Shown piece after piece: positions 7,313 to 60,063 of a DNA stretch of 64,000 bases. The position numbers and the translations under genes are program-made. This DNA is from Candidatus Limnocylindrales bacterium (GTDB lineage Bacteria > Moduliflexota > Moduliflexia > Moduliflexales > JAUQPW01), in the NCBI GenBank assembly GCA_035559535.1, contig DATMBG010000058.1, positions 248,001 to 312,000 of the forward strand. The letters run 5' to 3'. Every line of letters begins with the position of its first letter. The stretch's first letter is position 1. The notes under the pieces are model-generated. The model saw only the letters and a program-made list of their open reading frames with translations, was not told the DNA's origin and ran no database searches.

Positions 7313-7380
7313 AATTGGAGATGAGAGACCAGAGGTCTGTAAAACGGGCCTGGGGTCTTTAGTCTCAAGCCACCCGTTTC

Positions 7381-8046
7381 ATGATTAAAGTTGCTCCTTC
7401 CATATTATCGGCGGACTTTGCCAGGTTAGCCGAAGAAGTTAAGATCGTCGAGGCCGGGGGGGCAGATCTCATTCATGTGGATGTAATGGATGGTCATTTT
7501 GTTCCTAATCTGACCATAGGACCGATTGTGGTGGAAGCCTTACGAAAAAGGACTTCCCTTCCCCTGGATGTGCACCTGATGATTGAAAATCCAGATGCCT
7601 ATATTCCGGATTTTATCAAGAGTGGTGCGGATTCTATTACTGTTCATGTCGAAGCCTGTACCCATCTCCACCGAACGGTTCACCTTATTAAAGAAAAAGG
7701 GGTCAAAGTAGGGGTTGCCTTAAATCCTGCTACTCCTCTGACAAGCCTGCAGGAGATTGTCCAGGAGATCGATATGGCCCTTTTAATGTCTGTCAATCCC
7801 GGATTTGGTGGGCAAAAATTTATTCCTTCGGTACTTTCTAAGATTCAGCGATTCCGGCGAATCTTGCAGGATATGAATATTCTCCGGTTGGAAATTGAGG
7901 TGGACGGAGGAATTAAAGTCGACAATGCGGCTCAAATAGCCCTGGCAGGTGCAGATATTTTAGTGGCTGGATCGGCTGTCTTTGGATCTTCGGATCCAGC
8001 CGGTGTGATACGAAAAATAAAGGAAGCCTGTGCTATTCAGGTTTAA
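7381..8046 (+). CDS. rpe: Ribulose-phosphate 3-epimerase
   Basis: [48 protein letters not shown]. Confidence 0.98.
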
Positions 8047-8105
8047 TCAGGAGTCAGAATCCAGGAGTCAGAAACTAACTTCCTGACTCCTGACTCCCGA
8101 CTTCT
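8047..8105. repeat. Intergenic fold-back of 7-nt repeats (TCAGGAG/TCAGAAT vs CTCCTGA)
   Basis: TCAGGAG TCAGAAT CCAGGAG TCAGAAA ... TTCCTGA CTCCTGA CTCCCGA CTTCT. Confidence 0.85.
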
Positions 8106-8121
8106 ATCATTAAAAAATAGA

Positions 8122-9423
8122 ATGGATTTAAAAGAAAAGATTCTCCAACGAAAAGCTGTTGCCGGCGTGATCGGACTGGGCTATGTAGGCCTCCCCTTAG
8201 CCTTAGAGTTCTGTAGGGCTGGTTTTCAGGTCATTGGGTTTGATGTAAATATCAACAGGGTTAATGCCATTAACCGGGGCGACTCTTACATTCAGGATAT
8301 TTCTCCAGAAGCGGTCCAGGCGGCATTGCAGCAAAAGCGGTTACTGGCCTCCACAGATTTTTCTCTTCTGAAAGAAATCGATGCCGTCAGTATCTGTGTG
8401 CCGACCCCTTTGAGGAAGACAAAAGATCCGGATATTTCCTATATCGTAGCTGCTGTGGAGCAGATTACCCGGTATTTACATAAAGGGCAACTGATCGTTT
8501 TGGAAAGTACTACCTATCCGGGAACGACCGATGAGGTGATCTTACCCGAATTAAGCAAAACGGGCCTTAAAGTTGGAGAAGACTTTTATCTGGCTTTCTC
8601 CCCGGAGAGAGTGGATCCCGGAAATACCCGGTTTACCACACGAAATATTCCCAAGGTCATCGGTGGAATTACCCCCCAATGTACCGAAATGGCCATGACG
8701 CTCTATGAGCAGATCATTGAAAAGGTGATTCCTGTTTCTTCGACCAAAACGGCCGAAATGGTTAAACTTCTGGAGAATACCTTTCGCAGCGTTAATATTG
8801 CCCTGGTTAATGAAATTGCACTGATGTGTGATAAGTTGGGTATCGATGTGTGGGAAGTCATCAATGCTGCAGCCACTAAGCCTTTTGGCTTTATGCCTTT
8901 TTATCCGGGACCGGGTTTAGGAGGTCATTGTATTCCGCTGGATCCTTTTTACCTGGCATGGAAACTTAAAACCCTTAATTATACGGCACGATTTATTGAA
9001 CTGGCCGGAGAGATCAATGCCTTCATGCCCAATTATGTGATTAGTAAAGTTGCCGGAGTTCTCAATGATAAGGAGAGAAGTGTCAAGAACTCAAAAATTC
9101 TCATTATCGGGGTAGCCTATAAAAAGGATGTTAACGATATTCGAGAGTCTCCCGCCTTAGATATTATCCGTCTTCTAGAAAAGCAGGGAGCCAGGGTGTA
9201 CTACCATGATCCTTATATTCCTGAAATTACAGAGGAAGGAATCGTTTTAAAATCGGTAAACTTAACAGAATCTCTTCTGGCCGAAATGGATTGCACCGTC
9301 ATCGTAACCGATCATAGTGCTTATGATTACCAATGGCTGGTAGATCACTCTAACGTTGTGATTGATACCCGGAATGCTACGAAAAATGTTCGAGATTCTG
9401 GCAGGGTGATTCGGAAATTATAA
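8122..9423 (+). CDS. UDP-N-acetylhexosamine/UDP-glucose 6-dehydrogenase (WbpA/WecC-like)
   Basis: GLGYVGLP, CVPTP, ESTTYPGTT, SPERVDPG, KLLENTFR, catalytic GGHCIP, D(I)RESP. Confidence 0.93.
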   Translation: MDLKEKILQRKAVAGVIGLGYVGLPLALEFCRAGFQVIGFDVNINRVNAINRGDSYIQDISPEAVQAALQQKRLLASTDFSLLKEIDAVSICVPTPLRKTKDPDISYIVAAVEQITRYLHKGQLIVLESTTYPGTTDEVILPELSKTGLKVGEDFYLAFSPERVDPGNTRFTTRNIPKVIGGITPQCTEMAMTLYEQIIEKVIPVSSTKTAEMVKLLENTFRSVNIALVNEIALMCDKLGIDVWEVINAAATKPFGFMPFYPGPGLGGHCIPLDPFYLAWKLKTLNYTARFIELAGEINAFMPNYVISKVAGVLNDKERSVKNSKILIIGVAYKKDVNDIRESPALDIIRLLEKQGARVYYHDPYIPEITEEGIVLKSVNLTESLLAEMDCTVIVTDHSAYDYQWLVDHSNVVIDTRNATKNVRDSGRVIRKL

Positions 9424-9429
9424 AAACCC

Positions 9430-9472
9430 AAGGTTAAAGTCTCGGGTTTTGTTAACCTGAGACTTTAACCTT
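9430..9472. terminator. Hairpin between convergent genes, likely a bidirectional terminator
   Basis: AAGGTTAAAGTCTCGGGTT / AACCTGAGACTTTAACCTT 19-bp stem overlapping the rbfA stop. Confidence 0.6.
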
Positions 9473-9848
9473 TGGATTCGGAACTGATTTTATCCAGTAG
9501 CTGAAGAACCCGATGGGTCTCTTCCAGGGCTTCATCGAAAACAAATTTGATATCCGGAATATATTTTAAATCTAATCTTTTACCTAATTCGCCCCGAATA
9601 TAGCCACTAGCCCTCTCTAACCCCCCTAAAATTTCCCTTTTCTTTTCCTCAGCTATCGTAACCCCTTGGATCTGGGTAATCGAGGGAATTGTTACATAAA
9701 ACTTGGCATATCGAAGGTCTTCTGTCAGGTCTACCCGGGTAATGATCACTAGCTTGACTCGAGGATCTTTTATTTCTCGTTGTAAGATAAGGCTAACCTC
9801 CTGATGGAGGAGATCCCGAACCCGGTCTGCTCGTTTATACCTGCGCAT
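9465..9848 (-). CDS. rbfA: 30S ribosome-binding factor A
   Basis: RADRV, EIKDPRV, ITRVDLTEDLRYAKFYV, L..ASGYIR, PDIKFVFD; GGAG SD before ATG 9848. Confidence 0.95.
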   Translation of the reverse strand: MRRYKRADRVRDLLHQEVSLILQREIKDPRVKLVIITRVDLTEDLRYAKFYVTIPSITQIQGVTIAEEKKREILGGLERASGYIRGELGKRLDLKYIPDIKFVFDEALEETHRVLQLLDKISSESKG

Positions 9849-9849
9849 A

Positions 9850-10152
9850 TTACAATTCTCCATGGTTTAAGCTGGTTAATTCGATTCCATAATCCAGAAT
9901 ACTGACTATTCCCGAGCCTTCTATATGATTTATGACTTTGTTCAATTCCTGATTCACGTAATTTTTATCGTTGCTGACCATAGCAATCCCAATGGTAGAA
10001 CGCTGCCAGGTTTCCAGATGCCCTATTTCCGCAATGGAAACATTGAATCGATTTTTAATTCGGCTTTTGATGCTGTTAAGTACCTGTCGCTTTCCTTTTA
10101 AGGAGTGATTGCTTGGAAGATAAAGTTCTACTCTGCAAATTCCGATAATCAT
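9850..10152 (-). CDS. DUF503 (YlxP) family protein
   Basis: HSLKGKRQVL...RFNVSIAE...WQRS; located between infB and rbfA. Confidence 0.92.
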   Translation of the reverse strand: MIIGICRVELYLPSNHSLKGKRQVLNSIKSRIKNRFNVSIAEIGHLETWQRSTIGIAMVSNDKNYVNQELNKVINHIEGSGIVSILDYGIELTSLNHGEL

Positions 10153-10209
10153 TATGAATTATCAATTATCAATTAAAAAATATTAATTGATAATTGTTAA
10201 TTTATAATT
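10151..10209. repeat. Intergenic fold-back of 7-nt repeats (ATTATCA vs TGATAAT)
   Basis: ATTATGA ATTATCA ATTATCA ATTAA-loop-TTAAT TGATAAT TGTTAAT TTATAAT, spanning the infB stop to the DUF503 start. Confidence 0.85.
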
Positions 10210-12319
10210 TAGAGGCCACTTCTTCATAAGAAAAGGCTTCAATGATATCTCCTCTTTTGATATCATTGTAATTTTCCAAGCTGATCCCACATTCAAACCC
10301 GCTGGGTACTTCTTTAACATCTTCCTTAAATCGTTTCAAGGAAGCAATTCGACCCTGATGAACCACGACCCCGTTTCGAATGAGACGAATTTCGGCGTTT
10401 CGGACCATTTTACCCGAAAGGACTCGACACCCGGCGACCATCCCTACTTTAGATATGGAAAAGACTTCTTGAATTTCGGCCTGTCCCAGAATCACTTCTT
10501 TATAGGTAGGTTTGAGGAGTCCTTCCATAGCCTTTTTCACATCCGATATGGCATCGTAAATAACACTATACAGGCGAATATCTACTTTCTCTCTTTCTGC
10601 CGATATTCTTGCTTTGACTTCGGGTCGAACATTAAATCCCAGGATAATGGCATTGGAGGCTGAAGCTAACATTACATCTGTTTCAGTAATGGCTCCCACT
10701 GCGCCATGGATAACCTTTAGCCGGACCCGTGGGGTACTTAATTTCTCCAGAGATTCCTTGATAGCTTCTACAGAACCCTGGGTATCTGCTTTGACCACTA
10801 ACCTTAATTCTTGAACATCTCCTTCTTGAATCTTTCGGTATAGATCTTCCAGAGAAACTTTAGCCGATTTTGAGAGTTCTTCCTCCCGTTGTTTTTCTTG
10901 ACGGCTTAAGGCAATTTGACGTGCTTTACGTTCATCGCTGACAACGATAAAGGAATCTCCTGCAGAAGGTACACCGGTCAGGCCAAGAACCTCTACCGGG
11001 GTAGAAGGACCCGCTTCTTTGACTTTGTGACCCATGTCATCGATCATGGCCCGCACCTTTCCATAGTAGAGCCCGCATACAAAAGGATCTCCAATTCGCA
11101 AGGTTCCATTTTGCACCAGGACGGTTGCAACCGGGCCACGTCCTTTATCTAATCGAGCTTCTAGAATAGTTCCTTTGGCAGGCCTATCCGGATTGGCTTT
11201 GAGCTCCATGATTTCAGCCTGAAGCAAGATCATCTCCAGCAGAAGATCCAGGTTAATACGCTGTTTGGCGGATATTTCCACGAAAATGGTATTTCCTCCC
11301 CAGGCCTCGGGCAACAAATCATATTTAGTCAATTCATTTTTAACGCGCTGAGGGTCGGCATTGGGTTTATCGATCTTATTGATGGCCACAATAATGGGAA
11401 CTCCCGCTGCTTTTGCATGATCAATGGCTTCTATGGTTTGAGGCATCACGCCATCATCTGCAGCTACCACCAGGACCACAATATCGGTAACTCGGGCTCC
11501 TCGGGCCCGCATCGCCGTAAACGCCTCGTGACCAGGTGTATCCAGGAAAACAATCTCCCCTTTATCCAATCGAACTTTGTAAGCTCCAATATGCTGGGTA
11601 ATCCCGCCAGCTTCTGTAGCGGCAATCCTGGATTTTCTAATGGCATCTAACAAAGAGGTTTTACCATGATCTACATGGCCCATAATGGTTACAACCGGAG
11701 GCCTTGGTTTCAGTAAACTTTCATCCTCCTGCTCACCGGGGAACAATTTCTCCCCTTCTAAATCGATGGATTTTACGTTGAAACCAAATTTATCTGCAAC
11801 CGAAACAGCCGCATCGATATCTAAGATCTGATTAATATTGGCCATGATTCCCATCTTAATCAGGGACTTAATAACTTGAGGAGGTGGAACTCCCATTTTT
11901 TCTGCTAATTCTTTCACCGTGATAGCTTCTGTCATTTCAATGGTAGGTCTTGCAGGAGGCGTTGGTTTATCGGGTTTTTTCGTTTCTGGTTTTACGTCCG
12001 GCTTTACCTCGGGTTTTATTTCCGGCTTTTTTTCCTTTACAGCCTCTGCCTTCACATCTTTCTTTCCCTGGACCTTTTTCTCCTGGACCTTGAGAGTCTC
12101 TGGTTCTTGAGTTGGAGTGGGCTTTACAGCTACTTCCATTCCCTTTTTAGTCTCAGCCGAGGAGCTAAATATATCCATGATTAGATCCGCCGTATCACTA
12201 TCTACCGAACTCATGTGGCTGGTGACCTCGATCCCTTCCCCCTGGACTAGCTTTACAAGATCCTTGCTGGCGATTCCAAGCCTTCTAGCAAGATCATAAA
12301 GTCTCACGTTTTTTCCCAT
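10202..12319 (-). CDS. infB: Translation initiation factor IF-2
   Basis: [47 protein letters not shown]. Confidence 0.99.
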
Positions 12320-12347
12320 AATGCATCTTCCCTCCTATCCCTACAAA

Positions 12348-13625: not shown

Positions 13626-13671
13626 GGTCTCCCTCCAGTCCTTCTCTTTAGGAAAGTCGATCTCCTCCCAC

Positions 13672-14133
13672 CTAAAATTCAACTTCTAATCTAGACTTCG
13701 AGATATTCTCATAAGGTATTTCGATCTCTTGGTTTGATTTGGTCCTAATCCGTACCTTGTCATCCTGCATACCCTGCAAGTATCCAGAGAAGACCTTCTG
13801 TCCATTAATGGAAGAGAAGGTTTTTATTTTCACTAATTTGCCTTGAAATCGAAGATAATCCTCTTTTGTCTTCAAGGGCCTATCTAATCCAGGAGAAGAG
13901 ACTTCTAGTGTATAAGATCGGTCGATAATATCTTCAATATCCAGCAGAACCTCAACCTCCCGGCTGACTTTTTCACAATCCAAGAGGGTAACTCCACCCG
14001 GTTTATCAATAAAAATCCGAAGATACCAGATTTTACCTTCTTTTTTAAATTCAATATCCACCAGCTCCATCCCCTCAGATTCCACAACCGGAGTCACTAA
14101 AGTTCTTACGGAGTTAATTATCTCGTTCTTCAT
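13672..14133 (-). CDS. rimP: Ribosome maturation factor RimP
   Basis: LRIFIDKPGGVTLLDC, YTLEVSSPGLDRPL. Confidence 0.97.
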   Translation of the reverse strand: MKNEIINSVRTLVTPVVESEGMELVDIEFKKEGKIWYLRIFIDKPGGVTLLDCEKVSREVEVLLDIEDIIDRSYTLEVSSPGLDRPLKTKEDYLRFQGKLVKIKTFSSINGQKVFSGYLQGMQDDKVRIRTKSNQEIEIPYENISKSRLEVEF

Positions 14134-14169
14134 ACCTTACAAACCTCAAACTCTTTTTAGAGAGACAAT

Positions 14170-14196
14170 AAAAAAGTGGGCTTTTTGCCCACTTTT
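14170..14196 (-). terminator. rimP-leader terminator hairpin
   Basis: Minus strand AAAAGTGGGC-AAAAA-GCCCACTTTTTT about 40 nt upstream of rimP, matching the conserved rimP leader. Confidence 0.8.
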
Positions 14197-14302: not shown

Positions 14303-14380
14303 AATGCGGGAGTGTGGAGGTATGGAGGTATGGAAGTGTGGAAGTATAAAAAATAGACTCCCATACTCCCCTACCTCCCT
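14303..14380. repeat. Intergenic 8-nt repeat fold-back (TATGGAGG vs CCATACTC)
   Basis: TGTGGAGG TATGGAGG TATGGAAG TGTGGAAG ... ACTCCCAT ACTCCCCT ACCTCCCT. Confidence 0.8.
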
Positions 14381-15356
14381 ACTTATCCCGGGTTAATACC
14401 AGGTAGGTAAGATCTGATAAGATTTGCTTGGCGGTGCAGTCTTCAAATTCCTCCAGATAATCCCTGGCCATACTTGCGTATTGTTTAGCTTCCTGTAAAC
14501 TCAATTCAATGGCGTTATACTTATGAATAAGATCCAGGACGGTTTTAAAATCCTCTTCTTTGAGTTCTCCAGAGTTTTGAATCACGTGTTCTAAAAGAAC
14601 CCTTTCTTTAGGGGTGGCCTTCTCTAACAAAATAAGAAGGGGAAGGGTGACTTTCCCTTCCTTTAAGTCTGTTCCTGGAGTCTTACCAAACTTCTCGATA
14701 GGGGCAATAAAATCTAAGGTGTCATCGGTAATCTGGAAGGCAAGTCCCAGGTGGAGGCCGTAATTTCTTAAAGCCAGTTCTTTTTGTTGGGTAGCCTTCC
14801 CCAAAATGGCTCCCAACTGACAACAGGCTGAAAAAAGATACGCTGTCTTTAATTTGATAATTTCTAAATAATCAGCCCGTTGCATTCGGATATCTCGACT
14901 CCGAATCGATTCCATCACTTCTCCCTCGGTCATCCGCATGGTCAAATCCGCAATCACCCGCATAATGTTCATATCTCCGTCATGGACCGCAAGGAGCATG
15001 GACTTGGAGTAAAGGAAATCTCCTACAAGAATCGGAAGCGTATTGCCCCATACCGAATTGGCCGAAAGCTTTCCTCTTCTTAATTCCGCCCGGTCAATCA
15101 CATCGTCATGGAGTAGCGTGGCGGTATGGATGAATTCTACCACGCTCCCTAAAATATATTTTCTTTTACCCCGGTAGTTGGAAAGCTCTGCACTTAGCAA
15201 TACTAAAGCCGGACGTAAGCGTTTACCGCCACTTTTACAAATATGCCGGCCAATTTCCGTAATTAACTCCACATCCGATTGAAGTTGCCGTTCAATCTCA
15301 GCTTCTACTTCCTGGAGATCCTTCTGAAGATCTTTAAATAGCTGGTCAAGGGTCAT
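14379..15356 (-). CDS. Long-chain trans-polyprenyl diphosphate synthase (IspB/HepT-like)
   Basis: GGKRLRP, HTATLLHDDVID...RRG, KTA, FQITDDTLD, GKTPGTDLKEGKVTLP. Confidence 0.95.
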   Translation of the reverse strand: MTLDQLFKDLQKDLQEVEAEIERQLQSDVELITEIGRHICKSGGKRLRPALVLLSAELSNYRGKRKYILGSVVEFIHTATLLHDDVIDRAELRRGKLSANSVWGNTLPILVGDFLYSKSMLLAVHDGDMNIMRVIADLTMRMTEGEVMESIRSRDIRMQRADYLEIIKLKTAYLFSACCQLGAILGKATQQKELALRNYGLHLGLAFQITDDTLDFIAPIEKFGKTPGTDLKEGKVTLPLLILLEKATPKERVLLEHVIQNSGELKEEDFKTVLDLIHKYNAIELSLQEAKQYASMARDYLEEFEDCTAKQILSDLTYLVLTRDK

Positions 15357-16574: not shown

Positions 16575-16577
16575 CCA

Positions 16578-16668
16578 CAGAAGAGAAGTATAAGAGAGTA
16601 GGAGTGTGGGGGTTCGGGGGTATGGGAGTAGGGGAGAAATTCTATATTCCCATACCCCCTACATTTTA
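16578..16668. repeat. Intergenic 8-nt repeat fold-back
   Basis: AGAGAAG TATAAGAG AGTAGGAG TGTGGGGG TTCGGGGG TATGGGAG ... TTCCCATA CCCCCTAC. Confidence 0.75.
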
Positions 16669-17942: not shown

Positions 17943-18025
17943 GTCAAAGGTAGGAAGCCGGAGACAAGAGGTAAGGAGTGAGATTTCTTATTTCTTGCTT
18001 CTTGCCACCGGCTTCTTAAGTTTCG

Positions 18026-26162: not shown

Positions 26163-26229
26163 GTTCCGGGTCTGTTGTTTAGAGCCCAGGCCTTGCTAAT
26201 GTATCCCCGGCCAACAACGGACCCGGAAC
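26163..26229. terminator. Long hairpin between the convergent SDR and PepSY genes
   Basis: GTTCCGGGTCTGTTGTT / AACAACGGACCCGGAAC 17-bp stem. Confidence 0.5.
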
Positions 26230-29227: not shown

Positions 29228-29641
29228 AGAGCCTGCAATGATTTAAGGCTGGTATTATCCAGATAAGGGGACTTGAATTTTAATCTAACTTAGAAATAGG
29301 TATTTAAGTTGTCAATAAAAATCGACTTAGCTTGAGGTCGATGAGCCATTAATTTCTCCTTGACGGAGATCTTAACCCTATGTTAAAGATCATAGAATGA
29401 GAATTTAAGCATAGTTTGGAACTTTCTCGGTCAGGTTAAAATACCTAAGGTAAAGCTGCCTGTCTTAGAGAATTAAAAAGAGTCGTTATAAGGAAGGAAA
29501 ACCCATAAACCTACCGTCTTCAAGATAAATTATTTTCCAATTTATCCTAAGGACAGAGCAGGGGGTAGAAAATAAACTAAGAATCTGTTACTGGTTTTTG
29601 GTTTCTAATGACCAGTTGCCAGTTATCCGTTTACCAGGACC

Positions 29642-30478: not shown

Positions 30479-30644
30479 ATGGAATTGTCCGTTGTTTTTT
30501 GTTTGTTATCGGTTGTTCGTTGTTTTTGGATGGGAATCACGATTTTAACTATCTGGCTCAGTTCAAAAGATGAACGTTTTAACTGAATGCTCCAGGAAGG
30601 CAAAGGACAACGGTTGATGAACAACGAACAACGGGCAAAGCAAA

Positions 30645-31595
30645 TTGAAAGTTCTTATTACAGGTATTACAGGTTTTGTAGGTGGTTATCTTACGGAACT
30701 CCTTGCCAGAGAGTCCTATCAAATTTACGGAACTTATCTGGATCCCTTTAATCTTAAAAACTTATCCCCCTCCCAACAAAAGGCTACCTTTTATCCATGT
30801 GATTTAACCCAGCCGGAGGCTATTGAGGCGGTCGTTAAGGCAGTTCAACCTGACGTAGTTTACCATCTGGCCGGCATGAGCCATGTCCAAAAATCCTGGT
30901 CTATTCGAGAGACTACCTTAAAGGTCAACCTTTTTGGTGCCTTAAATCTTCTTGAATCCCTCCGGAAATTTGCCCCTTCTGCCAAAACTCTTATGGTAAG
31001 TTCCAGTGAAGTGTATGGAAATGTCCCTTTGGATCTTCAACCTATTTCTGAAAACGCCCCGCTTCGGCCCTTGACTCCCTATGCTGCCAGTAAAGCTTCC
31101 CTGGAATTGCTTTGCCATCCTTATATTTACGGGGATAAGCTTCACATCGTTATTGTCAGACCTTTTAATCATACGGGTCCACGCCAGGATCCCTCCTTTG
31201 TCTGTTCAGATTTTGCCAGACAAATTGCCGAAATTGAAAAGGGTTTACGAGAACCCAGGATTTATGTTGGCAACTTAGATGCCCGGCGAGATTTCTCCGA
31301 TGTTCGTGACGTGGTAAGGGGTTATCAGATGATTATGAAAAAGGGGCAGACCGGTGAGATCTATAATATCGCTTCCGGCAAAGCTTATGCTATCGGAGAA
31401 CTTCTGGATATCTTACTCAGTTTAAGTCCGGCTAAAATCCAAATAAGTCCGGATCCCGACCGGGTAAGACCTTCAGATATCCACCTGCTCCTGGGAGATA
31501 ACACAAAAGTTCGTCGTCAAATTGGCTGGGAACCCGAAATTCCCATCCAGGATACGCTACGGGATATTTTAAGCTATTGGAGAGAAAGGATTTAA
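30645..31595 (+). CDS. GDP-mannose 4,6-dehydratase / GDP-4-keto-6-deoxy-D-mannose reductase (Rmd-like)
   Basis: ITGITGFVG, SSSEVYG, PYAASK, RPFNHTGPRQ, GNLDARRDFSDVRD, RPSD; TTG start. Confidence 0.88.
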   Translation: MKVLITGITGFVGGYLTELLARESYQIYGTYLDPFNLKNLSPSQQKATFYPCDLTQPEAIEAVVKAVQPDVVYHLAGMSHVQKSWSIRETTLKVNLFGALNLLESLRKFAPSAKTLMVSSSEVYGNVPLDLQPISENAPLRPLTPYAASKASLELLCHPYIYGDKLHIVIVRPFNHTGPRQDPSFVCSDFARQIAEIEKGLREPRIYVGNLDARRDFSDVRDVVRGYQMIMKKGQTGEIYNIASGKAYAIGELLDILLSLSPAKIQISPDPDRVRPSDIHLLLGDNTKVRRQIGWEPEIPIQDTLRDILSYWRERI

Positions 31596-31601
31596 AGGGC
31601 C

Positions 31602-31733
31602 TGTGGAAGTATGGGGGTGTAGGAGTGGGGAAGTAGGGGAGTGTGGGAGTTCTATTTCTTATACTTCTACTTTCATACCCCCATACCTCCATACTTTCAT
31701 ACCCCCATACTTCCCCACTCCCACACTCTCTTA
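31602..31733. repeat. Intergenic 8-nt repeat fold-back (6 G-rich units vs about 8 C-rich units)
   Basis: TGTGGAAG TATGGGGG TGTAGGAG TGGGGAAG TAGGGGAG TGTGGGAG ... ACTTTCAT ACCCCCAT ACCTCCAT ACTTTCAT ACCCCCAT ACTTCCCC ACTCCCAC. Confidence 0.88.
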
Positions 31734-31750
31734 CATAGATCCTTTAAAAA

Positions 31751-33601
31751 ATGCGCCTGGTTCAAAGATTTTATACATTACAGTGTGTCAGGTGTGATAC
31801 ATTTTGGGATGAGCATCAGACCACTACAGTGTGTCTGAGATGTCGGAATGCTCTGGATGTCAAATATGATTATGACTATATCCGAGACCGGCTTAACCTC
31901 TATTCTCTTAAAAATTCTCCGTTAAGTGCCCTCAAATATATGGATTTTTATCCCATTGAGAACCGTCGCCGGGTGGTTTCTTTGGATGAAGGTGCTACCC
32001 CCCTTCATCGGTCTCAGAATTTATCTAAAGCTCTGGGGTTGAAAAATCTCTATGTGAAAGACGAGGGGGCCAATCCCACAGGAGTATTTAAAGATCGAGG
32101 CTCAATGGTAGAGTTTACCAAGGCCCTGGAATTAGGAGCTCAGGCTGTTTGTGTGGCTTCCACAGGAAATATGGCGGCTTCTTGTTCTGCTTATGCGGCT
32201 ATTGCAGGTCTTCCTTGTTATGTCTTGGTTCCTGAGGGAACAGCCATTGGTAAGTTATCTCAGACCCTGGCCTATGGCGCTCGGGTGTTACAGGTTCGGG
32301 GGACGTATGGAGATGCCGTGAGATTGACCGAGAAGATGGCCGAAGATCATAAATTTTATCTGGCAGGGGATTATGCCTTTCGGGCCGAAGGACAAAAATC
32401 AATCAGCTATGAAATTATCGAACAACTCTACTGGAAAGCCCCTGACTTTGTCATCGTTCCCATAGGCTGCGGGACTAATCTGGCTGCTATTTGGAAGGGG
32501 TTCGTAGAATTTAAAAAATTAGGATTCATCGATACCCTGCCGAAGTTGATCGGGGTACAACCCGAGGGGTGTTCTACCATTTGTGAGGCCTTTAAGCGAA
32601 ACATAGATCGGGCAGTTCTCATAGAAAAACCTAAAACCATTGCCTCGGCCGTAGGCATTGGAGTTCCCCAGGACGATATCAAAGCCTTGAGGGCCCTGAG
32701 AGAATCCAAAGGATACTGCTTAACGGTTACAGATTCTGAAATTTTAGCCTCTCAACAGGAGCTGGCCAAAACGGAATCCATCTTCGTAGAACCTTCTGCA
32801 GCTATTCCTATCGCAGTTCTTCCAACCCTCCTGAAGGAGAAAATTATTCATGAGGAAGACGTGGTCGTCTGTATTGCCACGGGAAATGGCTTAAAAGACC
32901 CCCATGCAGTTCTGAAGATCCTTCCTTCTCCTCCCTCTATAGAGGCTTTGAGCAGCGAAGTAGATAAATTTCTAAAGAACCGTTTGTATGAAATTCAGGG
33001 AATTAAACTTAAAGATCAAGGAGAGATCCTCTTTCAACAGGTTCCCGAGAAAGACAAGCTCTTGGATCTGGTGGAACAGGAGTTCAAGGTAAACTTGAGA
33101 AATCCCTATGGAGACCATCTTTATATCCTGGCTCGGGAATTTGAAGAAAAGGGAAAAGCAGTGACACGAACGGATCTACAGAACCTGGTGGAAACGGTTC
33201 TAAAGAGTACCAGCCCGCATAAATTTCTCAAGGTTTTGGATTATCAGGTTGTTGCGACAAAACATGCCCGTCCCAGGGCCACTGTAACCCTGGAATTTGA
33301 AGGGAAGCGGACCATTTCAGAGAGCGAAGGGGTGGGTCCTGTGGATGCTGCTATCCAGGCTCTTCGGAAGGCGGTTCAGGAAACCCATGACTTTGAATGC
33401 CACCTGGTGGATTATCAGGTTCATATCGATACCTCAGGGACAGATTCTGCCGTTGAAGTGACCATGACCTTGAAAGATAAAGAAAACAACCAGGTGGTAG
33501 CGGTGGGGACTTCTCCGGATATCATCGTAGCCTCTATCGAAGCCTTCGAGGAAGGTTACAATGTACTTTACGGAAAGAATCAGACCCCGCTGGAGACTTA
33601 A
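31751..33601 (+). CDS. thrC: Threonine synthase fused to a C-terminal LeuA/isopropylmalate-synthase regulatory domain
   Basis: N-terminal CxxC..CxxC, NPTGVFKDRG (PLP lysine), ASTGNMA, PIGCGTN, EPSAA, TGNGLKD; C-terminal GVGPVDAAIQAL, LVDYQV, GTDSAVEV, GTSPDIIVASIEAF. Confidence 0.85.
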   Translation: MRLVQRFYTLQCVRCDTFWDEHQTTTVCLRCRNALDVKYDYDYIRDRLNLYSLKNSPLSALKYMDFYPIENRRRVVSLDEGATPLHRSQNLSKALGLKNLYVKDEGANPTGVFKDRGSMVEFTKALELGAQAVCVASTGNMAASCSAYAAIAGLPCYVLVPEGTAIGKLSQTLAYGARVLQVRGTYGDAVRLTEKMAEDHKFYLAGDYAFRAEGQKSISYEIIEQLYWKAPDFVIVPIGCGTNLAAIWKGFVEFKKLGFIDTLPKLIGVQPEGCSTICEAFKRNIDRAVLIEKPKTIASAVGIGVPQDDIKALRALRESKGYCLTVTDSEILASQQELAKTESIFVEPSAAIPIAVLPTLLKEKIIHEEDVVVCIATGNGLKDPHAVLKILPSPPSIEALSSEVDKFLKNRLYEIQGIKLKDQGEILFQQVPEKDKLLDLVEQEFKVNLRNPYGDHLYILAREFEEKGKAVTRTDLQNLVETVLKSTSPHKFLKVLDYQVVATKHARPRATVTLEFEGKRTISESEGVGPVDAAIQALRKAVQETHDFECHLVDYQVHIDTSGTDSAVEVTMTLKDKENNQVVAVGTSPDIIVASIEAFEEGYNVLYGKNQTPLET

Positions 33602-36086: not shown

Positions 36087-36194
36087 GGAAGATAAAGATG
36101 CAGAGATGTGGAAATGCGGAGGTTCTTTCTTTCCCTGTTCGGGATCCTCCGCATCCCCTGAATTCCCGCATCTTTATAGCCTCGTGTTTCCTTT

Positions 36195-47413: not shown

Positions 47414-47498
47414 TTTGAAGCCACCCCGGCACGGAAAACATTAAGATTCTATTTTTACTTCTCCATGAATCCAGTGCCTCCGGTAGCTTTAGGTTCCC

Positions 47499-48304: not shown

Positions 48305-48412
48305 ATAGGATGGAGGTATGGAGGTATATTCTCCCTCCTACACCTCTATACTCCCATACCCCCATACCTCCATACCTCCATACGCCCATACTCCCATACC
48401 CCCACACTCATC
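48305..48412. repeat. Intergenic 8-nt repeat fold-back
   Basis: GATGGAGG TATGGAGG ... CTCCTACA CCTCTATA CTCCCATA CCCCCATA CCTCCATA CCTCCATA CGCCCATA CTCCCATA CCCCCACA. Confidence 0.88.
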
Positions 48413-49448: not shown

Positions 49449-49647
49449 ATAAGAATGATGTCTCGCAAAGCTCACAAAGCCGCCAAGTTTTTGATTTTTC
49501 GCAATGTGGCCGACGTATTTTATCTAAACGGAAGCTATCTACTATAGGGATCTTCAACTCGAACTGACGATTTCTGCGGTATTGCGATTTTCTTTGCACC
49601 TTTGCGCCTCTGCGAAGGATCCCACAGGTCGAATATCAAAATAAATA

Positions 49648-49745
49648 TGGCGGGAATGTGTGGGAATCGAACCCACCGCGGACTTGATTAGAGCCCGCCA
49701 CTGGATTTGAAGTCCAGGAGGCCCACCAGGGACCTAGCCATTCCC
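49648..49745 (-). tRNA. selC: tRNA-Sec (anticodon UCA)
   Basis: Minus strand GGGAATGG-CT-AGGTCCC-TGGT-GGGCCT-C-CTGGA-CTTCAAA-TCCAG, long variable arm, GTGGG-TTCGATT-CCCAC, ACATTCCC-G-CCA: 98 nt, long D-stem, UCA anticodon, encoded CCA. Confidence 0.95.
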
Positions 49746-50075
49746 GCAGAGTTAATCATTTTACTACAATATAGACTTTGATCTTTATAGCTTGTCAATA
49801 GGTTTTTATTCTTCCCATGACCCGGGGTAAAAGCCTGGGAGCCAGATAAGAAGGGTAGCTCCAGTGGGGCGATCTGTTTACCAGAACGCTGCTACGGAGC
49901 TTAAAAAATTCTGGATTTCTGAAACCCTCGACGGAAGTTGAAGGTTACAGGTCGTTGGCTCCTGATTGGACTTTTACCCTTATCCTGGCGTGTATGGGGA
50001 AGGGGAGTAGGGTGGCGAGCCGCCCGCGTTCCCAGGCAATGGGGTCAAGCTTTTCTACCTTTTCCCGGCTTTCCA

Positions 50076-53295: not shown

Positions 53296-53467
53296 AGGAG
53301 TTGAGGGTTAAGGCGTAAATATGTATTTATAAGATGAGGGGATAAAGATTTATTTAGTAGTATGATAACATTTAGCTACCTTATTCGTCTATCTTTATAA
53401 ATATAAATAGGTAGCTAGGTGTTCCCTGGTCTTTTTTTAACTTACTTTTTTAAGAGGTGATTTTATC

Positions 53468-55528
53468 ATGGTGGATAGCATAATATCCCTAATCAGAGAG
53501 AAACAGGATCTGCGTCGGTTTAAGGAGCAGAATTGGGAGGGAAGTTATGCAGAGTATTTAGAGATTGTGCGGCGAAATCCAAAAGTGGCCAGATCTGCGT
53601 TCCAGAGGATTTACGACATGATCCTTTCTTATGGGGTTGAGGAGTACACGGAACATAAAGAGAAGCTGATACGATATAAATTCTTCAGTGATCCTCAGTT
53701 TGCTGGAGAAGACGCCATTTATGGCCTCGATCGCACCCTCATGAAGTTAGTCAACGTCTTTAAATCCGCTTCTCGGAGATATGGTACAGAAAAACGGGTT
53801 ATTCTCCTTCATGGTCCTGTGGGAAGTTCAAAAAGCACCATTGCCCGTCTTTTAAAACGGGGTCTGGAGGAGTACTCTAAGACCGATGAGGGTGCTTTGT
53901 ATTCTTTTGGTTGGAAGCAGACGGAGAAAACCGGGTTAGAGACCTCGGATGGTAAGCCTTCTGTTGTTAAATGTCCCATGCATGAGGAGCCGCTCCATTT
54001 AATACCCCCGAACTTCCGATCCATTGTCTTGGAGGAGATTAATCGAACCCTTCCGGAAGAGGAGAAGATCGTCATAGAGGGTAATTTATGTCCTTTTTGT
54101 AGATATATGTATAAGGAGTCCTTGAAGAAATACGGTGGAGACTGGACGCGGGTCATGGAGGATGTGGTGGTTTATCGTCTTATCCTTTCAGAGGAGGATC
54201 GCATTGGAATCGGGACTTTCCAGCCCAAGGATGAAAAAAATCAAGACTCTACAGAACTCACCGGGGATATTAACTATCGTAAAATCGCCGAGTATGGTTC
54301 TGATTCAGACCCTCGGGCCTTTAATTTTGATGGGGAATTTAACATTGCCAACCGGGGAATCGTTGAGTTCATTGAAGTCCTTAAATTGGATGTGGCTTTT
54401 CTATACGATCTGCTAGGAGCTTCTCAAGAACATAAAATTAAACCGAAAAAGTTTGCCCAAACGGATATCGATGAGGTAATCATCGGTCACACCAACGAAC
54501 CGGAGTATAAAAAACTTCAAAATAACGAATTTATGGAGGCCTTGAGGGATCGGACGGTTAAAATCGACGTTCCTTATATTACCAAGTTGAGTGATGAGAT
54601 TAAAATCTATGAGAAATATTACAATCCCTCAAAGATTAAAGGGAAACATATTGCCCCTCATACCATCGAGATGGCCGCTATGTGGGCAGTACTGACCAGA
54701 TTGGAAGAGCCTAAAAAAGCCCAGTTGAGCCTCATGCAAAAACTGAAGCTTTACAATGGAAAAACTCTTCCCGGCTTTACTGAAGATAACATTAAAGAGC
54801 TGCAAAAAGAAGCTCCCCGGGAAGGTATGGAGGGGATCTCTCCCCGGTACATTCAGGATAAAATTTCCAATGCGCTGGTCAGCGATGAAGGAGCCGGTTG
54901 TGTGAATCCCTTTATGGTCATGAACGAACTGGAAAATGGACTGGAACATCATGCACTCATTACGAGCCCGGAACTCCGGAAACGATATAAAGAACTGCTG
55001 GCTCTGGTAAGAGAGGAGTATGAAGACATCACGAAAAATGAAGTCCAGCGGGCCATCTCAGCCGACGAAGAAGCACTCACCAGACTTTGTGCCAACTATA
55101 TCGATAACATCAAGGCGTATACCCAACGGGAAAAGGTTAAGAATAAATATACCGGTCAGTACGAGCCTCCCGATGAACGGCTCATGCGCTCCATTGAGGA
55201 GAAGATTGATATTCCGGAAAGCCGTAAGGATGATTTCCGGCGGGAGATCATGAATTATATTGGAGCTCTGGCTGTGGATGGAAAAAAATTTGATTATAAA
55301 ACCAATGAGCGCCTGCAAAAAGCTCTGGAACTTAAGCTCTTTGAAGATCAAAAGGATTCCATCAAACTGACCAGCCTGGTCTCCAGTGTCGTCGATAAGG
55401 AAACCCAAGAAAAAATCGATGTGGTTAAAAATCGACTGATCAAAAATTACGGCTACTGTGAGATCTGTGCTACCGATGTTCTGAACTACGTGGCCAGTAT
55501 TTTTGCCCGGGGCGATACCAAGCGATGA
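53468..55528 (+). CDS. prkA: PrkA/YeaG AAA+ serine protein kinase
   Basis: [65 protein letters not shown]. Confidence 0.95.
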
Positions 55529-55649
55529 GATAAACCCAGAGGATCCAAAGTGCTTTATGTTTTAAGGGTTCTGAAGGGTCCAGTCCTTAGGCCCTTCAGG
55601 CCCTTAAAAACTTTAGGCCCTTAAAAGATCCTTCAGTCTGTTTTAAGTT

Positions 55650-56750
55650 ATGTCTAGCAAAATTGAAAGAGACCACGCACGATTTAATCAGATTATTCGA
55701 GGTAAGATCAAGAAGGAACTACGCCGATATATGACGCGTGGAGAACTGATCGGGAAGAAGGGAAAAGATCTGGTTAGTATTCCGATTCCTCAAGTGGAGA
55801 TTCCCCATTTTGAATTTGAAACCCGAAAACTCGGGGGGGTAGGTCAAGGAGAGGGTGAGCCTGGAACCCCTATTGGTCGAGGAGATGCCGAACCCGGGCA
55901 AGGTGCCGGAGAAACTCCCGGGGATCACATTCTGGAAGTTGATCTTTCCCTGGAGGAATTGGCTAAAATCTTGGGTGAAGAGCTGGAACTGCCCCGGATA
56001 GAGCCCCGAGGTAAGAAGAACATTGTTAACGAAAAAGAAAGATATACCGGCATCCGTCAGGTTGGACCTGAAAGTCTTCGTCACTTCAAAAGAACCTATA
56101 AGGCGGCTCTCAGACGTCAACTGGCCACAGGAACGTATGATCCCAATCACCCCCTTGTGATTCCCATTCAAGAAGATAAACGCTACCGTTCCTGGAAATT
56201 GACCAAGGAACCAGAAAGCAATGCCATTATTTTTTATATTATGGATGTATCGGGTTCTATGGGTGATGAACAGAAGGAAATTGTTCGTATAGAATCCTTC
56301 TGGATCGATACCTGGTTACGTTCTCAGTATAAAGGGATTGAATCCCGTTACATTATCCATGATGCGGTAGCCAGAGAAGTCGATAGCCACACCTTTTATC
56401 ATACCCGGGAAAGTGGAGGAACCATCATCTCCTCTGCCTATGAGTTATGTAACCGACTCATCGAGGCACATTATAATCCCTCCGAATGGAATATATATAT
56501 TTTCCATTTTTCCGATGGGGATAACTGGTATGGGGATACCGATAAGTGTCTTTCGATTCTTGAAAATCACCTGCTCCCCAAAGTTAATCTCTTCTGTTAC
56601 GGACAGGTCCGAAGTTTTTATGGAAGCGGTCAATTTAAAGGTGAGATCGATGAGTACTTTGGAGATACGGAGAATGTAGTAACTTCGGAAATTAACAGTA
56701 AGGAAGGGATTTACGATTCCATTAAGGAATTTCTCGGAAAAGGGAAATAG
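55650..56750 (+). CDS. yeaH: YeaH/YhbH (DUF444) vWA-like protein
   Basis: GVGQGEG, MDVSGSM, ESGGT, FSDGDNW; lies between prkA and spoVR. Confidence 0.92.
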
Positions 56751-56842
56751 AAGCGACACAGAGACACGGTGACAGGGGGAGGCGGCCTTTTTCCCCTCAT
56801 CGTTGTATCTCCGTGTTGCTCTCTCTTAGCAGTACCGGTTTT

Positions 56843-58327
56843 ATGAGTCTTACCCCTGAGTTAGAAGCTATCCGTAAAGAGGTCGAGGGCTACGCCCGGG
56901 AGTACGGTTTGGATTTCTTTGAGGTAATCTTTGAGATCCTGGATTTTGACAAGCTCAATGAAGTAGCCAGTTATATGGGCTTTCCAACCCGATATCCCCA
57001 CTGGCGGTTCGGTATGGAGTATGAACAACTCCAGAAAAGCTATACCTATGGCCTTCAGAAGATCTACGAAATGGTCATTAACAATGATCCTTCCTATGCC
57101 TATTTGCTCAAGTGCAATAACGATGTGGATCAAAAACTGGTTATGGCCCACGTATACGGTCATGTAGACTTTTTTAAAAATAATATCTGGTTTTCACAAA
57201 CCAATCGAAAAATGATGGATGGCATGGCCAATCATGGAGCCCGAATTCGTCGCTATATTGATAAGTATGGGGAGGAAAAAGTCGAGCGTTTCCTGGATTG
57301 CTGCCTGTCTCTGGAGAATTTGATAGATCCCCATTCCCCCTTTATTAAACGCCAGGATGAAAAGCCCCGGTTTAATTTTCAAGAAGAAGAAGAGGAGAAG
57401 ACCGTCAAAAAACTCAAAGTTGAAAGACCTTACATGGATAGCTACATCAATCCGTCAGATTTTTTGGAAAGTCAGAAAAAGAAGTTAGAACAGGAAGCCG
57501 AAAAAAAACAAAAATTCCCGGAGAATCCCGAGCGGGATGTTCTCTTGTTCCTCATTAACCATGCCCCTCTGGAAAACTGGCAACTTGACATTTTGTCCAT
57601 TATTCGAGATGAAGCCTATTATTTCGCTCCCCAAGCCCAGACAAAGATAATGAACGAAGGATGGGCCTCCTACTGGCATTCTAAAATTATGACCCAGAAA
57701 TGCCTGAAGGATTCTGAAGTGATTGATTATGCCGATCATCACTCTGGAACCCTCAGTACCCGACCTGGGCGGATTAATCCTTATAAGCTCGGTATAGAAT
57801 TGTTTCGGGATATCGAAGATCGGTGGAATAAGGGAAAATTCGGTAAGGAATATGAGGAATGTGATGATCTGGAGAAAAAGAAAAATTGGGATAAAAAGTT
57901 GGGTCTGGGGCTGCAAAAAATCTTCGAGGTTCGGAAAATTTATAACGATGTGATGTTTATCGATGCCTTTTTAACGGAGGAGTTTTGCCGGGAACAGAAA
58001 CTTTTTACTTATAGATATAATGAACAGACCCAGATGTATGAAATTGCCGATCGAGATTTCAAAAAAATAAAGGCTTCCTTACTCTTCAGTCTGACCAATT
58101 TCGGTCAGCCTTTTATTTATATTACCGATGCCAATTATGGGAATCGAGGTGAACTTTACCTCCAACATCGCTACGAAGGGGTTGAACTTCGGATTGACTA
58201 TGCCAAGGATACCCTTCAAAACCTTTATACCCTGTGGAAACGCCCCGTTCATCTGGAGACTGTGGTCAATGACAAAGGAATTCTCTTTACGTTTGATGGG
58301 AAAAGTCATGAGGAGAGACGAATTTAA
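56843..58327 (+). CDS. spoVR: SpoVR/YcgB family protein
   Basis: GFPTRYPHWRFG, IYEMVINNDP, AHVYGHVDFFKNN, TKIMNEGWASYWH, NPYKLG. Confidence 0.95.
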   Translation: MSLTPELEAIRKEVEGYAREYGLDFFEVIFEILDFDKLNEVASYMGFPTRYPHWRFGMEYEQLQKSYTYGLQKIYEMVINNDPSYAYLLKCNNDVDQKLVMAHVYGHVDFFKNNIWFSQTNRKMMDGMANHGARIRRYIDKYGEEKVERFLDCCLSLENLIDPHSPFIKRQDEKPRFNFQEEEEEKTVKKLKVERPYMDSYINPSDFLESQKKKLEQEAEKKQKFPENPERDVLLFLINHAPLENWQLDILSIIRDEAYYFAPQAQTKIMNEGWASYWHSKIMTQKCLKDSEVIDYADHHSGTLSTRPGRINPYKLGIELFRDIEDRWNKGKFGKEYEECDDLEKKKNWDKKLGLGLQKIFEVRKIYNDVMFIDAFLTEEFCREQKLFTYRYNEQTQMYEIADRDFKKIKASLLFSLTNFGQPFIYITDANYGNRGELYLQHRYEGVELRIDYAKDTLQNLYTLWKRPVHLETVVNDKGILFTFDGKSHEERRI

Positions 58328-58359
58328 TTAACGGGGAATCAATGAATGGGGAGTGGGGA

Positions 58360-60063
58360 ATGAGAAAGACAAAACTTCAAACTCTCATCTGGATTGCAAC
58401 GGCCTGTATAGCCTTATTCCTTTCAACCGGTGCGTATATTGCGTATCGTAGCATGGAAGGAGAAATTGCGAATCAATTTAATAAACAACAGGAGATGCTG
58501 GCCAAGCAGGCGGCTTCCGGAATCGAAGCCCATTTTCAAGAAATTCTCTTTACCCTAAAATTGGGGACTTCCTTGGAAAATGAAGGAATGGGGGTTAATT
58601 CGATTAACCTCAAAACCCTCTATGATCGACTCAACGGAAAAGTGATTAGCCTGGTTCGGGTAGATGAGTCCGGAATCCCAAAGCAAGCCTATCCTGAGGA
58701 AATCCTTGAACAGGTTAAAAACCGAAATTACCACGGAGTAGATTATTTTCGGGTCTGCTGGATTACCGGCCAACCCTACATATCTAAATGGTTAACAGAT
58801 AAAACCCAGCCAAGGAAGATCATCGTAGCCGTTCCGGTTTTTAATCGGGAAGTACGGGATGGTCTTTCGGCTTTCAAAGGGATTCTCCTGGCCGATGTAG
58901 ATCCCAATATTATTATCGATACCTATATTAAACCCATAAAATCCGGTAAGTCGGGATTTGCCTGGCTCATCGATAGTAATGGAACTCTTTTATATCATCC
59001 CTTTCATCCGGATAGTAAGGATTCGGCAGATCATTCTTATAGTGAGAACGAGGATAGTTGTAGGGAATGTCATCAGTCCTTTGACCTTGAGACCAAGATG
59101 GTGACCGGGGAAGCCGGTCACACCCGGCTAAAGACTCATACCGGTCAGGAATATTTAATTGCCTATTCCCCGGTTCATATCGATGGGGCGATGTGGGCTG
59201 CTATCGGGGTCAATGTTCCTTACTCGGATGTAACCAATTCGGTTCGAAGAAGCTTCATCTGTATTTTCATCCTGGTCATTATGACCGTAGCCATTATTAT
59301 CATCGGAGCCGCAGCCATCATCCGGCTTAACAATAAACGAATCAAGGCCGAGGAAGTCCTTGCATCGGAAAGATTGGTTACCATTGGAAAAATGGCGGCT
59401 CAAGTGGCCCATGAGATTCGTAACCCCCTCAGTTCTATTAGCTTAAACGCCGAACTCCTGGAAGAGGAAATTAATAGTTATGAAGGGGTATCGACGGAAG
59501 AGGCCAGATCGCTTTTAACGGCAATTATGTCTGAAGTCGATCGATTAGCCTCTATTACAGAGGATTATCTCAAATTTGCCCGGTTACCCAGGCCGGTCTG
59601 GGAAAAGGAAAATATCAACCATATTCTCCTGGACTTACTCAACTTTTCCAAGGAAGAAATTGCAAAACATGGGATTCAGGTTATGACCCAATTTGATCCT
59701 TCGATTCCGGAGATCAAGTTAGATGAAAAACAACTGCGGGAGGCTTTTCTGAATATTTTGAAGAATGCCTTCGAAGCCATGCCCCAGGGCGGTGAGCTTC
59801 AGATTACCACAGCCAGGACGGGTGAGCAAATCGAAGTGATCATCTCGGATACCGGAATCGGCATAGAGGAAAAAAATCTGGAGAAGATCTTTACTCCCTT
59901 TTTCACAACCAAAGAGGACGGTACCGGACTTGGCCTGGCTTTAACTCAGCAAATTATCCACGAACACGGAGGTACTATCCAGTGTAGAAGTCAGGTGGGC
60001 AAAGGAACAACTTTTGTCCTACAATTTCCTGTGGTGGGTCAACGCGTGAAAATGGATAAGTAA
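58360..60063 (+). CDS. Membrane sensor histidine kinase with periplasmic Cache domain containing a CxxCH motif
   Basis: Two TMs; Cache motifs (PYIS, VAVPV, GKSGFAWLIDSNG..YHP); SCRECH; H-box AHEIRNPL; N/G/F boxes. Confidence 0.92.
   Translation: MRKTKLQTLIWIATACIALFLSTGAYIAYRSMEGEIANQFNKQQEMLAKQAASGIEAHFQEILFTLKLGTSLENEGMGVNSINLKTLYDRLNGKVISLVRVDESGIPKQAYPEEILEQVKNRNYHGVDYFRVCWITGQPYISKWLTDKTQPRKIIVAVPVFNREVRDGLSAFKGILLADVDPNIIIDTYIKPIKSGKSGFAWLIDSNGTLLYHPFHPDSKDSADHSYSENEDSCRECHQSFDLETKMVTGEAGHTRLKTHTGQEYLIAYSPVHIDGAMWAAIGVNVPYSDVTNSVRRSFICIFILVIMTVAIIIIGAAAIIRLNNKRIKAEEVLASERLVTIGKMAAQVAHEIRNPLSSISLNAELLEEEINSYEGVSTEEARSLLTAIMSEVDRLASITEDYLKFARLPRPVWEKENINHILLDLLNFSKEEIAKHGIQVMTQFDPSIPEIKLDEKQLREAFLNILKNAFEAMPQGGELQITTARTGEQIEVIISDTGIGIEEKNLEKIFTPFFTTKEDGTGLGLALTQQIIHEHGGTIQCRSQVGKGTTFVLQFPVVGQRVKMDK

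Follow-up and report, generated by a model that had tools for sequence, protein, structure and literature searches.

Gene-less tandem-repeat hairpins behind stop codons in a bacterial genome and their probable kinship with PF05635 intervening-sequence cassettes

The 64,000-nucleotide (nt) stretch of bacterial DNA analysed here (positions 248001-312000 of contig C58, GenBank DATMBG010000058.1; hereafter the window) has many of the spacers between its genes filled by hairpins, a number of them built from short tandem units on one arm and the complements of those units on the other. It belongs to a genome (G000) of 5.6 Mb in 58 contigs, with a G+C content of about 45% and an estimated completeness of 95.8%. 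A sequence-only reading of the window had listed 15 such hairpins, described them as intra-operon fold-backs spanning stop to start ahead of genes that lack a Shine-Dalgarno (SD) sequence, and proposed that they are empty copies of an intervening element that couples translation. We found a stem-loop predicted at all 15 sites (folding energy, dG, -15.1 to -62.5 kcal/mol), and at 13 of them the energy was well below that of 200 dinucleotide shuffles per site (z score of -3.1 or less); the two that fell short were 29575-29637 and 49460-49617 (Table 1). The description of the arms as tandem units was strictly borne out at five of the 15 sites (10151, 14303, 30485, 31602 and 48305) and more loosely at 8047, 16578, 7317 and 56752, where at least one arm had a period-7 or period-8 self-match of 0.56-0.83; it failed at 55538, where the best score was 0.44 at period 9 and the units were not tandem. 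The term intra-operon was too strong: the listed sites do include junctions of the conserved operons nusA-infB-rbfA and prkA-yhbH-spoVR, but several flanking gene pairs are functionally unrelated, 49460-49617 separates a tRNA-Sec gene from the gene that follows, and of three hairpins of the same appearance that had not been listed (9424-9478, 26163-26229 and 60084-60147) the first two span convergent spacers stop to stop. All 10 starts named as SD-less indeed had no SD core at -18 to -4, all four named as SD-bearing had one, and the statement that the window holds no four-helix-bundle open reading frame (ORF) was likewise correct.

To place these sites in the genome as a whole we used a crude gene call, the longest ORFs of at least 80 residues, which gave 4544 ORFs and 3301 spacers of at least 30 nt. 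The spacers hold 1333 stem-loops at or below -25 kcal/mol, and in a sample of 313 spacers such a stem-loop was predicted in 71 of the real sequences vs 17 of the shuffled ones. A strict periodicity filter (self-match of at least 0.7 in both arms) caught only 30 of 2511 stems, so tandem units were instead detected by pairing arrays from Tandem Repeats Finder (TRF), in which the commonest periods were 7 (892 arrays) and 8 (775 arrays). Counting an array as inverted when an array of the reverse-complement unit lay within 150 nt, and as direct when the same unit followed in the same order, we obtained 141 inverted vs 9 direct pairs genome-wide; 93 of the inverted pairs had period 8 and 47 period 7, and the 141 were built from 53 distinct units. 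The largest group, family A, has the 8-mer GTRTGGRR as its unit and includes the window's TATGGAGG sites. In it the G-rich arm comes first in 146 hairpins and the C-rich arm in 2, a canonical G-quadruplex motif is present in the 5' half of 44 of the 146, and unit variation is almost wholly between A and G in one arm and between C and T in the other. This arm order is a property of family A; among strong hairpins generally the G-rich arm came first in 719 and second in 586.

The union of TRF pairing and the 8-mer pattern comprised 211 tandem fold-backs, of which 150 lie in co-directional, 27 in convergent and 10 in divergent spacers, and 24 fall within called ORFs, some of these ORF calls being certainly wrong. 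The 150 co-directional fold-backs have a median length of 94 nt and a median dG of -47.5 kcal/mol, and the 129 RNAfold stem-loops overlapping a fold-back have a median stem of 35 bp. When counted per spacer, 150 of 2293 co-directional spacers (6.5%) and 27 of 455 convergent spacers (5.9%) are occupied, vs 10 of 553 divergent spacers (1.8%), so the preference for co-directional spacers that would be expected of an operon device is absent. Fold-backs lie a median of 9.5 nt from a stop codon, with 106 of 204 stop-side distances not exceeding 10 nt, and in co-directional spacers the 5' base of the hairpin peaks at -4 to +11 nt from the stop and its 3' base at 0-19 nt before the start. Given the near-equal occupancy of co-directional and convergent spacers and the proximity to stops, the common factor is a position behind a stop codon and not one between operon cistrons. 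The depletion from divergent spacers is confined to strictly tandem fold-backs, as strong stem-loops overall had no preference among the spacer classes (0.336, 0.356 and 0.318 per spacer). The window's own sites are each flanked by protein-coding genes or adjoin a tRNA gene, and none is inserted in a 23S rRNA helix.

A single gene in the genome matched PF05635, the 23S-rRNA-IVS-protein or Avd-like four-helix-bundle family (IVS, intervening sequence), and it lies not in the window but at C36:151036-151350, where it occupies the loop of a hairpin; the GTGTGGGA arms of this hairpin, like the TATGGAGG sites, belong to family A. PF05635 matches were present in 16 of the 31 genomes searched, and 18 of 20 PF05635 loci examined in 13 genomes, G000 included, were bracketed by inverted arms with a period of 7-9 nt, each with its own unit; the arm alignments scored at least 35 at 11 of the 18, and the weak ones may be chance. 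The GACRCGG-type units of the window hairpins at 56752 and 36088 are similar to those bracketing the PF05635 gene (locus L044) of a genome of the same genus, G001, with 144 shared 13-mers vs 10 in a reversed control, and the TCAGGAG/TCAGAAT units at 8047 resemble cassette arms at L042 in a distant genome (58 vs 3 shared 13-mers). These matches support the idea of empty copies of an intervening element. The statement in the sequence-only reading that similar repeats flank four-helix-bundle and GxxExxY genes in other bacteria held for PF05635; GxxExxY (TIGR04256) had no match in the genome. None of the window hairpins has a PF05635 ORF in its loop, and among 37 inverted array pairs lying 150-3000 nt apart we found no cargo gene at eight candidate loci inspected and a PF05635 gene at C36 alone; an ilvN-like gene at C36:53330 is an ordinary gene between two hairpins. 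These two (C36:53232-53352 and C36:53898-53960) are separate heptamer fold-backs of the AAAGGCG and GTAAAAC types, with related units. In the literature we found nothing that linked PF05635 cassettes to intergenic tandem-repeat hairpins generally, most subscription journals lying outside the search.

G001, at about 93% DNA identity, was the sole close relative among the genomes searched (seven others are of the same order and the remainder share only the domain), and the comparison with it drew on 722 kb, or 13% of G001. The PF05635 loci of G000 (L001) and G001 (L044) occupy one and the same convergent spacer, whose flanks share 92.6% identity across about 1350 nt to either side. No DNA similarity could be detected between the cassettes themselves (L001:1431-1966 and L044:1383-1958); the proteins share 53% identity, the arms are GTGTGGGA vs GACGCGGG, and the genes point in opposite directions. 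Since the arms abut both stop codons in both genomes, either whole cassettes were swapped at a fixed site or the same target was used repeatedly. At 71 orthologous hairpin sites the hairpins were 85.3% identical vs 93.4% for their flanks, with equal length at 23 sites, small indels at 30 and large indels at 18. At the 23 gap-free sites the mean energy change was +2.15 kcal/mol, vs +6.44 kcal/mol in random mutants matched for number and kind of change, and 18 of the 23 folded better than their mutants (p 0.005); base pairing is thus preserved beyond what random mutation would leave. Of nine orthologous tandem fold-backs, eight differ by indels of at least 19 nt and eight fold at -43 kcal/mol or less in G001; the one at C35:88929 measures 131 nt in G000 and about 50 nt in G001, with both arms shortened. 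Across the two congeneric genomes the fold-backs hold their positions, yet both arms take on and shed units and their sequence changes fast. We also observed that close-strain assemblies are interrupted at the hairpins (G001 C157:16233, C159:70537 and the start of C61) and that contigs of run X3 end at the window hairpins at 9430-9439, 14308-14347 and 16599, so draft genomes will undercount such elements.

The 16S rRNA 3' end is canonical in this genome and SD motifs are most frequent at -15 to -9 before starts, which allowed us to compare the first available starts behind hairpins with those elsewhere. As the sequence-only reading had supposed, SD sequences are depleted behind hairpins: they were found at 79 of 486 starts behind a near-start hairpin vs 420 of 1135 co-directional starts with no hairpin (Fisher p 1e-17), with a chance rate of 11.5-13% for the test. 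The frequency depended on distance, being 9-14% (8/67, 10/107 and 19/132) where the hairpin ended less than 16 nt before the start and 21-26% (20/76 and 22/104) where it ended at least 16 nt before. The split-SD possibility, in which looping out the hairpin rebuilds an SD from two halves, was rejected: after in silico excision an SD was present in 13-17% of the joined sequences vs 11-18% with a shifted boundary, so folding delivers no hidden SD to the start. The prkA-yhbH junction, which carries a hairpin in this window, could be followed across 64 junctions from many phyla, with a median spacer of 20 nt and an SD in 18 of the 64; where the spacer was at least 50 nt an SD was present in 2 of 17, and several of these spacers hold fold-backs. 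yhbH is thus SD-poor across phyla, short spacers included. At L004 the prkA-yhbH junction is 0 nt and the yhbH-spoVR junction -4 nt, and at L006 the junction upstream of yhbH is 29 nt. Stop-to-start hairpins at the prkA-yhbH junction also occur in unrelated bacteria (L113, L115, L167 and L140), that of L113 being a clear CGGATTT/AATCCGA heptamer fold-back.

On balance we favour the interpretation that the spacers hold gene-less, IVS-like fold-back elements, of which the complete form consists of two complementary arms of tandem 7-8-nt units enclosing a PF05635 four-helix-bundle gene, and that the lack of SD sequences behind them is mostly a matter of survivorship. The elements are found chiefly a short way past stop codons, whether the spacer is co-directional or convergent, and once transcribed would form double-stranded stems of 20-60 bp that RNase III should cut, as it does in rRNA IVS. 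Such processing is plausible by analogy with IVS, because the stems are well above two helical turns, and because the genome carries an rnc (RNase III) gene (C44:235602-236261). As for the missing SD sequences, there is no space for one when a hairpin ends fewer than 16 nt before a start, so a hairpin would persist there only before starts that do not depend on an SD, and the depletion may be mostly survivorship and geometry. We also infer that the elements are not built for translational coupling.

Several results weigh against this interpretation. There is one cargo copy for about 211 fold-backs, and 853 of the 1333 strong stem-loops are singletons by sequence. Out of 17 foreign cassette arm sets, two (L042 and L044) were clearly enriched here and one (L038, 23 vs 9) weakly. 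Nor does the abundance of a family track the arms of the resident cassette, since family A arms occur at 48.0 per Mb in G000 vs 44.3 in G001, and GAYRYGGR arms at 4.6 vs 5.5 per Mb. We saw no clean empty site or target duplication of the kind a MITE would leave, and the arrays may have grown in place; at the nine tandem fold-back sites compared none was cleanly empty in G001 and one was reduced to a remnant, target duplications not having been searched systematically. SD frequency is still somewhat low where there is space enough for one. Among co-directional fold-backs the sense strand folds better in 87 and the antisense strand in 60, with 516 vs 414 G-U pairs, a modest bias that could be explained by transcription-linked mutation. 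Finally, start positions and spacer classes were taken from the longest ORFs and are prone to error.

The growth-in-place account deserves to be set out in full, although we consider it unlikely. Slippage would expand 7-8-nt units and template switching in quasi-palindromes would copy the changes to the other arm, such that small palindromes behind stops grow tandem arms and PF05635 genes merely lodge in the loops. This would agree with the diversity of units and the many singletons, with the fixed sites at which unit numbers shift on both arms (as at C35:88929), with the lack of an empty site bearing a target duplication among the nine compared, and with family abundances that are independent of the cassette present. 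It does not readily explain why 146 copies of one 8-mer family keep a fixed arm order with only two departures, which argues for copying rather than independent growth, or why PF05635 genes of other genomes have the same types of unit at their flanks and a whole cassette has been replaced at one site (L001/L044). We think it still less probable that the hairpins are coupling devices that loop out to juxtapose stop and start, so that terminating ribosomes reinitiate on the SD-less gene. Their frequent stop-to-start extent and the near-chance SD frequency behind them are what coupling would produce, and the prkA-yhbH-spoVR junctions that hold hairpins here are close to zero length at L004 and short at L006, with fold-backs at prkA-yhbH in other phyla as well (e.g., L113). 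Set against this, convergent spacers offer no start to couple and are equally occupied, the cargo cassette itself sits in a stop-to-stop spacer, excised junctions gain no SD over shifted controls, yhbH is SD-poor whatever the length of its spacer, and the stem at 14303 is not conserved, its 5' arm being absent in G001. The sequence-only reading had itself named the lack of a preference for co-directional spacers as grounds for rejection. SD-independent reinitiation may nonetheless occur, and we return to it below as one route of a further proposal.

We give a similarly low likelihood to the hairpins being transcript 3'-end elements, acting as intrinsic terminators or, like REP sequences, as stabilisers against 3' exonucleases; so near to stop codons they could also stall terminating ribosomes, as E. 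coli REP sequences reportedly do. The position right behind stops, the rarity in divergent spacers and the great stability of the stems are all compatible with such a role. T-tracts, however, are not enriched after the stems (17 of 105 on the sense strand vs 21 of 105 on the antisense strand), the median stem far exceeds those of intrinsic terminators, no Y1_Tnp/RAYT gene (PF01797) was matched in this nearly complete genome, and many of the hairpins lie within conserved operons such as prkA-yhbH-spoVR and nusA-infB-rbfA. Several hundred genes begin less than 16 nt from a stem of great stability and lack an SD, and so must initiate translation by some other route. In a further proposal the hairpins might themselves replace the SD as working expression parts, either because the ribosome terminating at the stop codon would melt the base of the stem and pass to the start codon on the other side, or because RNase III cutting the stem would generate a 5' end lying a few bases short of a start that is AU-rich and has no SD. 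We regard this as improbable; if it were true, selfish PF05635 cassettes found across phyla would have been recruited as a general module for SD-independent initiation in operons.

Three little-understood matters may be related: the over-abundance of 7-8-nt tandem repeats in bacterial intergenic DNA, the widespread "23S rRNA IVS protein" family, and the intervening sequences of rRNA. We know of no role for this four-helix-bundle family outside diversity-generating retroelements, and of no catalytic activity for the bundle. The present genome offers a clear case, with a single cargo copy as against about 210 gene-less hairpins and, in a close relative, a different cassette at the same site. One close likeness is to the IVS of 23S rRNA, described in passages of PMC4990558 for Coxiella burnetii (with Leptospira and others cited) as having terminal inverted repeats that pair over 28 bp, tandem heptamers whose number varies, a loop that carries an S23p (PF05635) ORF, and excision by RNase III. 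A long stem formed by terminal inverted repeats, with tandem units, is shared by the elements described here, in which an ORF in the loop was found only once, at C36. The elements here differ in lying between protein-coding genes, in being gene-less in about 210 cases, in having an 8-mer as their main unit, and in that RNase III excision is proposed for them by analogy.

Intergenic tandem heptamers are also known from Xanthomonas, with 70-75 convergent pairs of arrays of the G-rich heptamer GGGAATC per genome, and from Nostoc, and according to passages of PMC4692102 they often form convergent pairs able to fold into stem-loops. Tandem 7-8-nt units in inverted pairs are what we found here as well, and some G-rich, quadruplex-capable arms are common to Xanthomonas and family A. 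The repeats of G000 differ in having many units, with 8-mers dominant, and four-helix-bundle genes and downstream ribosome-binding sites go unmentioned in those passages. The REP/REPIN-RAYT system (PMC3116915) has a comparable ratio of hundreds of extragenic hairpins to a single-copy gene flanked by the repeat, with palindromes of 20-40 nt in place of the tandem-array arms and longer hairpins seen here. The gene associated with the hairpins here encodes a four-helix bundle, not Y1_Tnp. Short REP-like palindromes that start with GTAGGGGC and end with GCCCCTAC do occur in G000 as small families (for example at C16:2061-2137, C21:180372-180407 and C51:482748-482782). In Beggiatoaceae and cyanobacteria, passages of PMC4679880 report TAACTGA heptamers before start codons, in direct orientation in 169 sets and inverted in one, and no recognisable SD between repeat and downstream start where the repeats lie inside ORFs; these share with our elements the intergenic heptamer arrays beside starts and differ in being direct and in forming no hairpins.

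The individual hairpins of the window are collected in Table 1.

Table 1. Hairpins of the window, with their gene setting and their fold; dG in kcal/mol, z against 200 dinucleotide shuffles, SD at -18 to -4.
Position	Strand	Feature	Setting	Fold, units and comparison with G001
7317..7370	+	Stem-loop, weak period 7	PASTA-domain gene stop 7312 to rpe start 7381 (no SD)	dG -28.1; z -5.96; conserved in G001 (6 substitutions, 1 insertion)
8047..8105	+	TCAGGAG/TCAGAAT fold-back	rpe stop 8046; ends 16 nt before sugar-dehydrogenase start 8122	26-nt arms, 77% complementary; z -4.11; 4-member family in genome; visible by eye after the rpe stop as TCAGGAGTCAGAATCCAGGAGTCAGAAA ... TTCCTGACTCCTGACTCC
9424..9478		Unlisted hairpin filling convergent spacer	Stop 9423 to stop 9465	25-nt arms, 88% complementary; z -7.97; 8-nt insertion in G001
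10151..10209	-	ATTATCA/TGATAAT heptamer fold-back	Covers infB stop and start of following gene (10152)	26-nt arms, 92% complementary; TRF period-7 inverted pair; z -7.31
14303..14382	-	GTRTGGRR (family A) octamer fold-back	Adjoins polyprenyl-synthase stop (14379-14381)	z -4.73; G-rich arm absent in G001; contig of run X4 differs likewise
16578..16668	+	Family A fold-back	Rubrerythrin stop 16574 to GlpC-like start 16674 (no SD)	Period 8, arm self-match 0.83/0.67; z -4.83
17943..18018	+	CAAGAAG/CTTCTTG-type hairpin	Directly 3' of GlpC-like stop 17942	38-nt arms, 74% complementary; dG -41.9; z -6.90
26163..26229		Unlisted hairpin	Convergent spacer	17-nt arms, 94% complementary; z -6.97
29575..29637	+	Weak stem-loop	Before rmlD (start 29642)	z -2.33; 6/200 shuffles as good; barely above chance
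30485..30640	+	GTTGTTC/GAACAAC heptamer fold-back	rmlD stop 30478 to next start 30645	TRF period-7 inverted pair; dG -55.9; z -5.80
31573..31756	+	Largest family A fold-back of window, 66 bp	Spans stop 31595 to start 31751	130-nt hairpin between that stop and start, GTATGGGG/CCCCATAC arms; 31602-31733: dG -62.5, z -5.52; both G001 contigs matching the flanks terminate there
36088..36178	-	GATGCGGA-type hairpin	Quinone-reductase stop 36195 to dinB start 36086 (no SD)	Sense-strand dG -42.6; z -6.67
47420..47495	-	Weak stem-loop, no periodicity	Aldolase stop to xylulokinase start	z -3.10; 1/200 shuffles as good
48305..48412	-	Family A fold-back, unequal arms	Zn-dehydrogenase stop 48411 to aldolase start 48299	18-nt arms, 100% complementary; TRF period 8 and 8-mer pattern; z -3.49
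49460..49617	-	CGCAAAG/CTTTGCG inverted arms separated by about 85 nt	Downstream of tRNA-Sec (49648-49745)	Only outer arms pair; whole fold z -0.83, 39/200 shuffles as good
55538..55640	+	Hairpin filling prkA-yhbH junction, units not tandem	Stop 55528, start 55650	dG -43.3; z -5.14
56749..56830	+	GACACGG-type hairpin	yhbH-spoVR junction	z -3.52; diverged in G001; 17-member family in genome
60084..60147	+	Unlisted perfect 32-bp palindrome, C-rich arm first	After histidine-kinase stop	TRF period-8 pair; dG -67.2; z -11.89; arm order opposite to family A

Elements with the C-rich arm first like that at 60084..60147, for example at C10:81799, shared the largest BLAST cluster (333 members) with family A. 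The tRNA-Sec gene beside 49460..49617, on the minus strand, was called by ARAGORN and matched Rfam RF01852 with 74.5 bits. Close by, window positions 49830-50020 hold a dispersed repeat of about 160-190 nt that is itself folded (dG -69.5 kcal/mol) and is unrelated to the tandem fold-backs; 15 further partial copies at 74-92% identity were found in G000, and many in G001.

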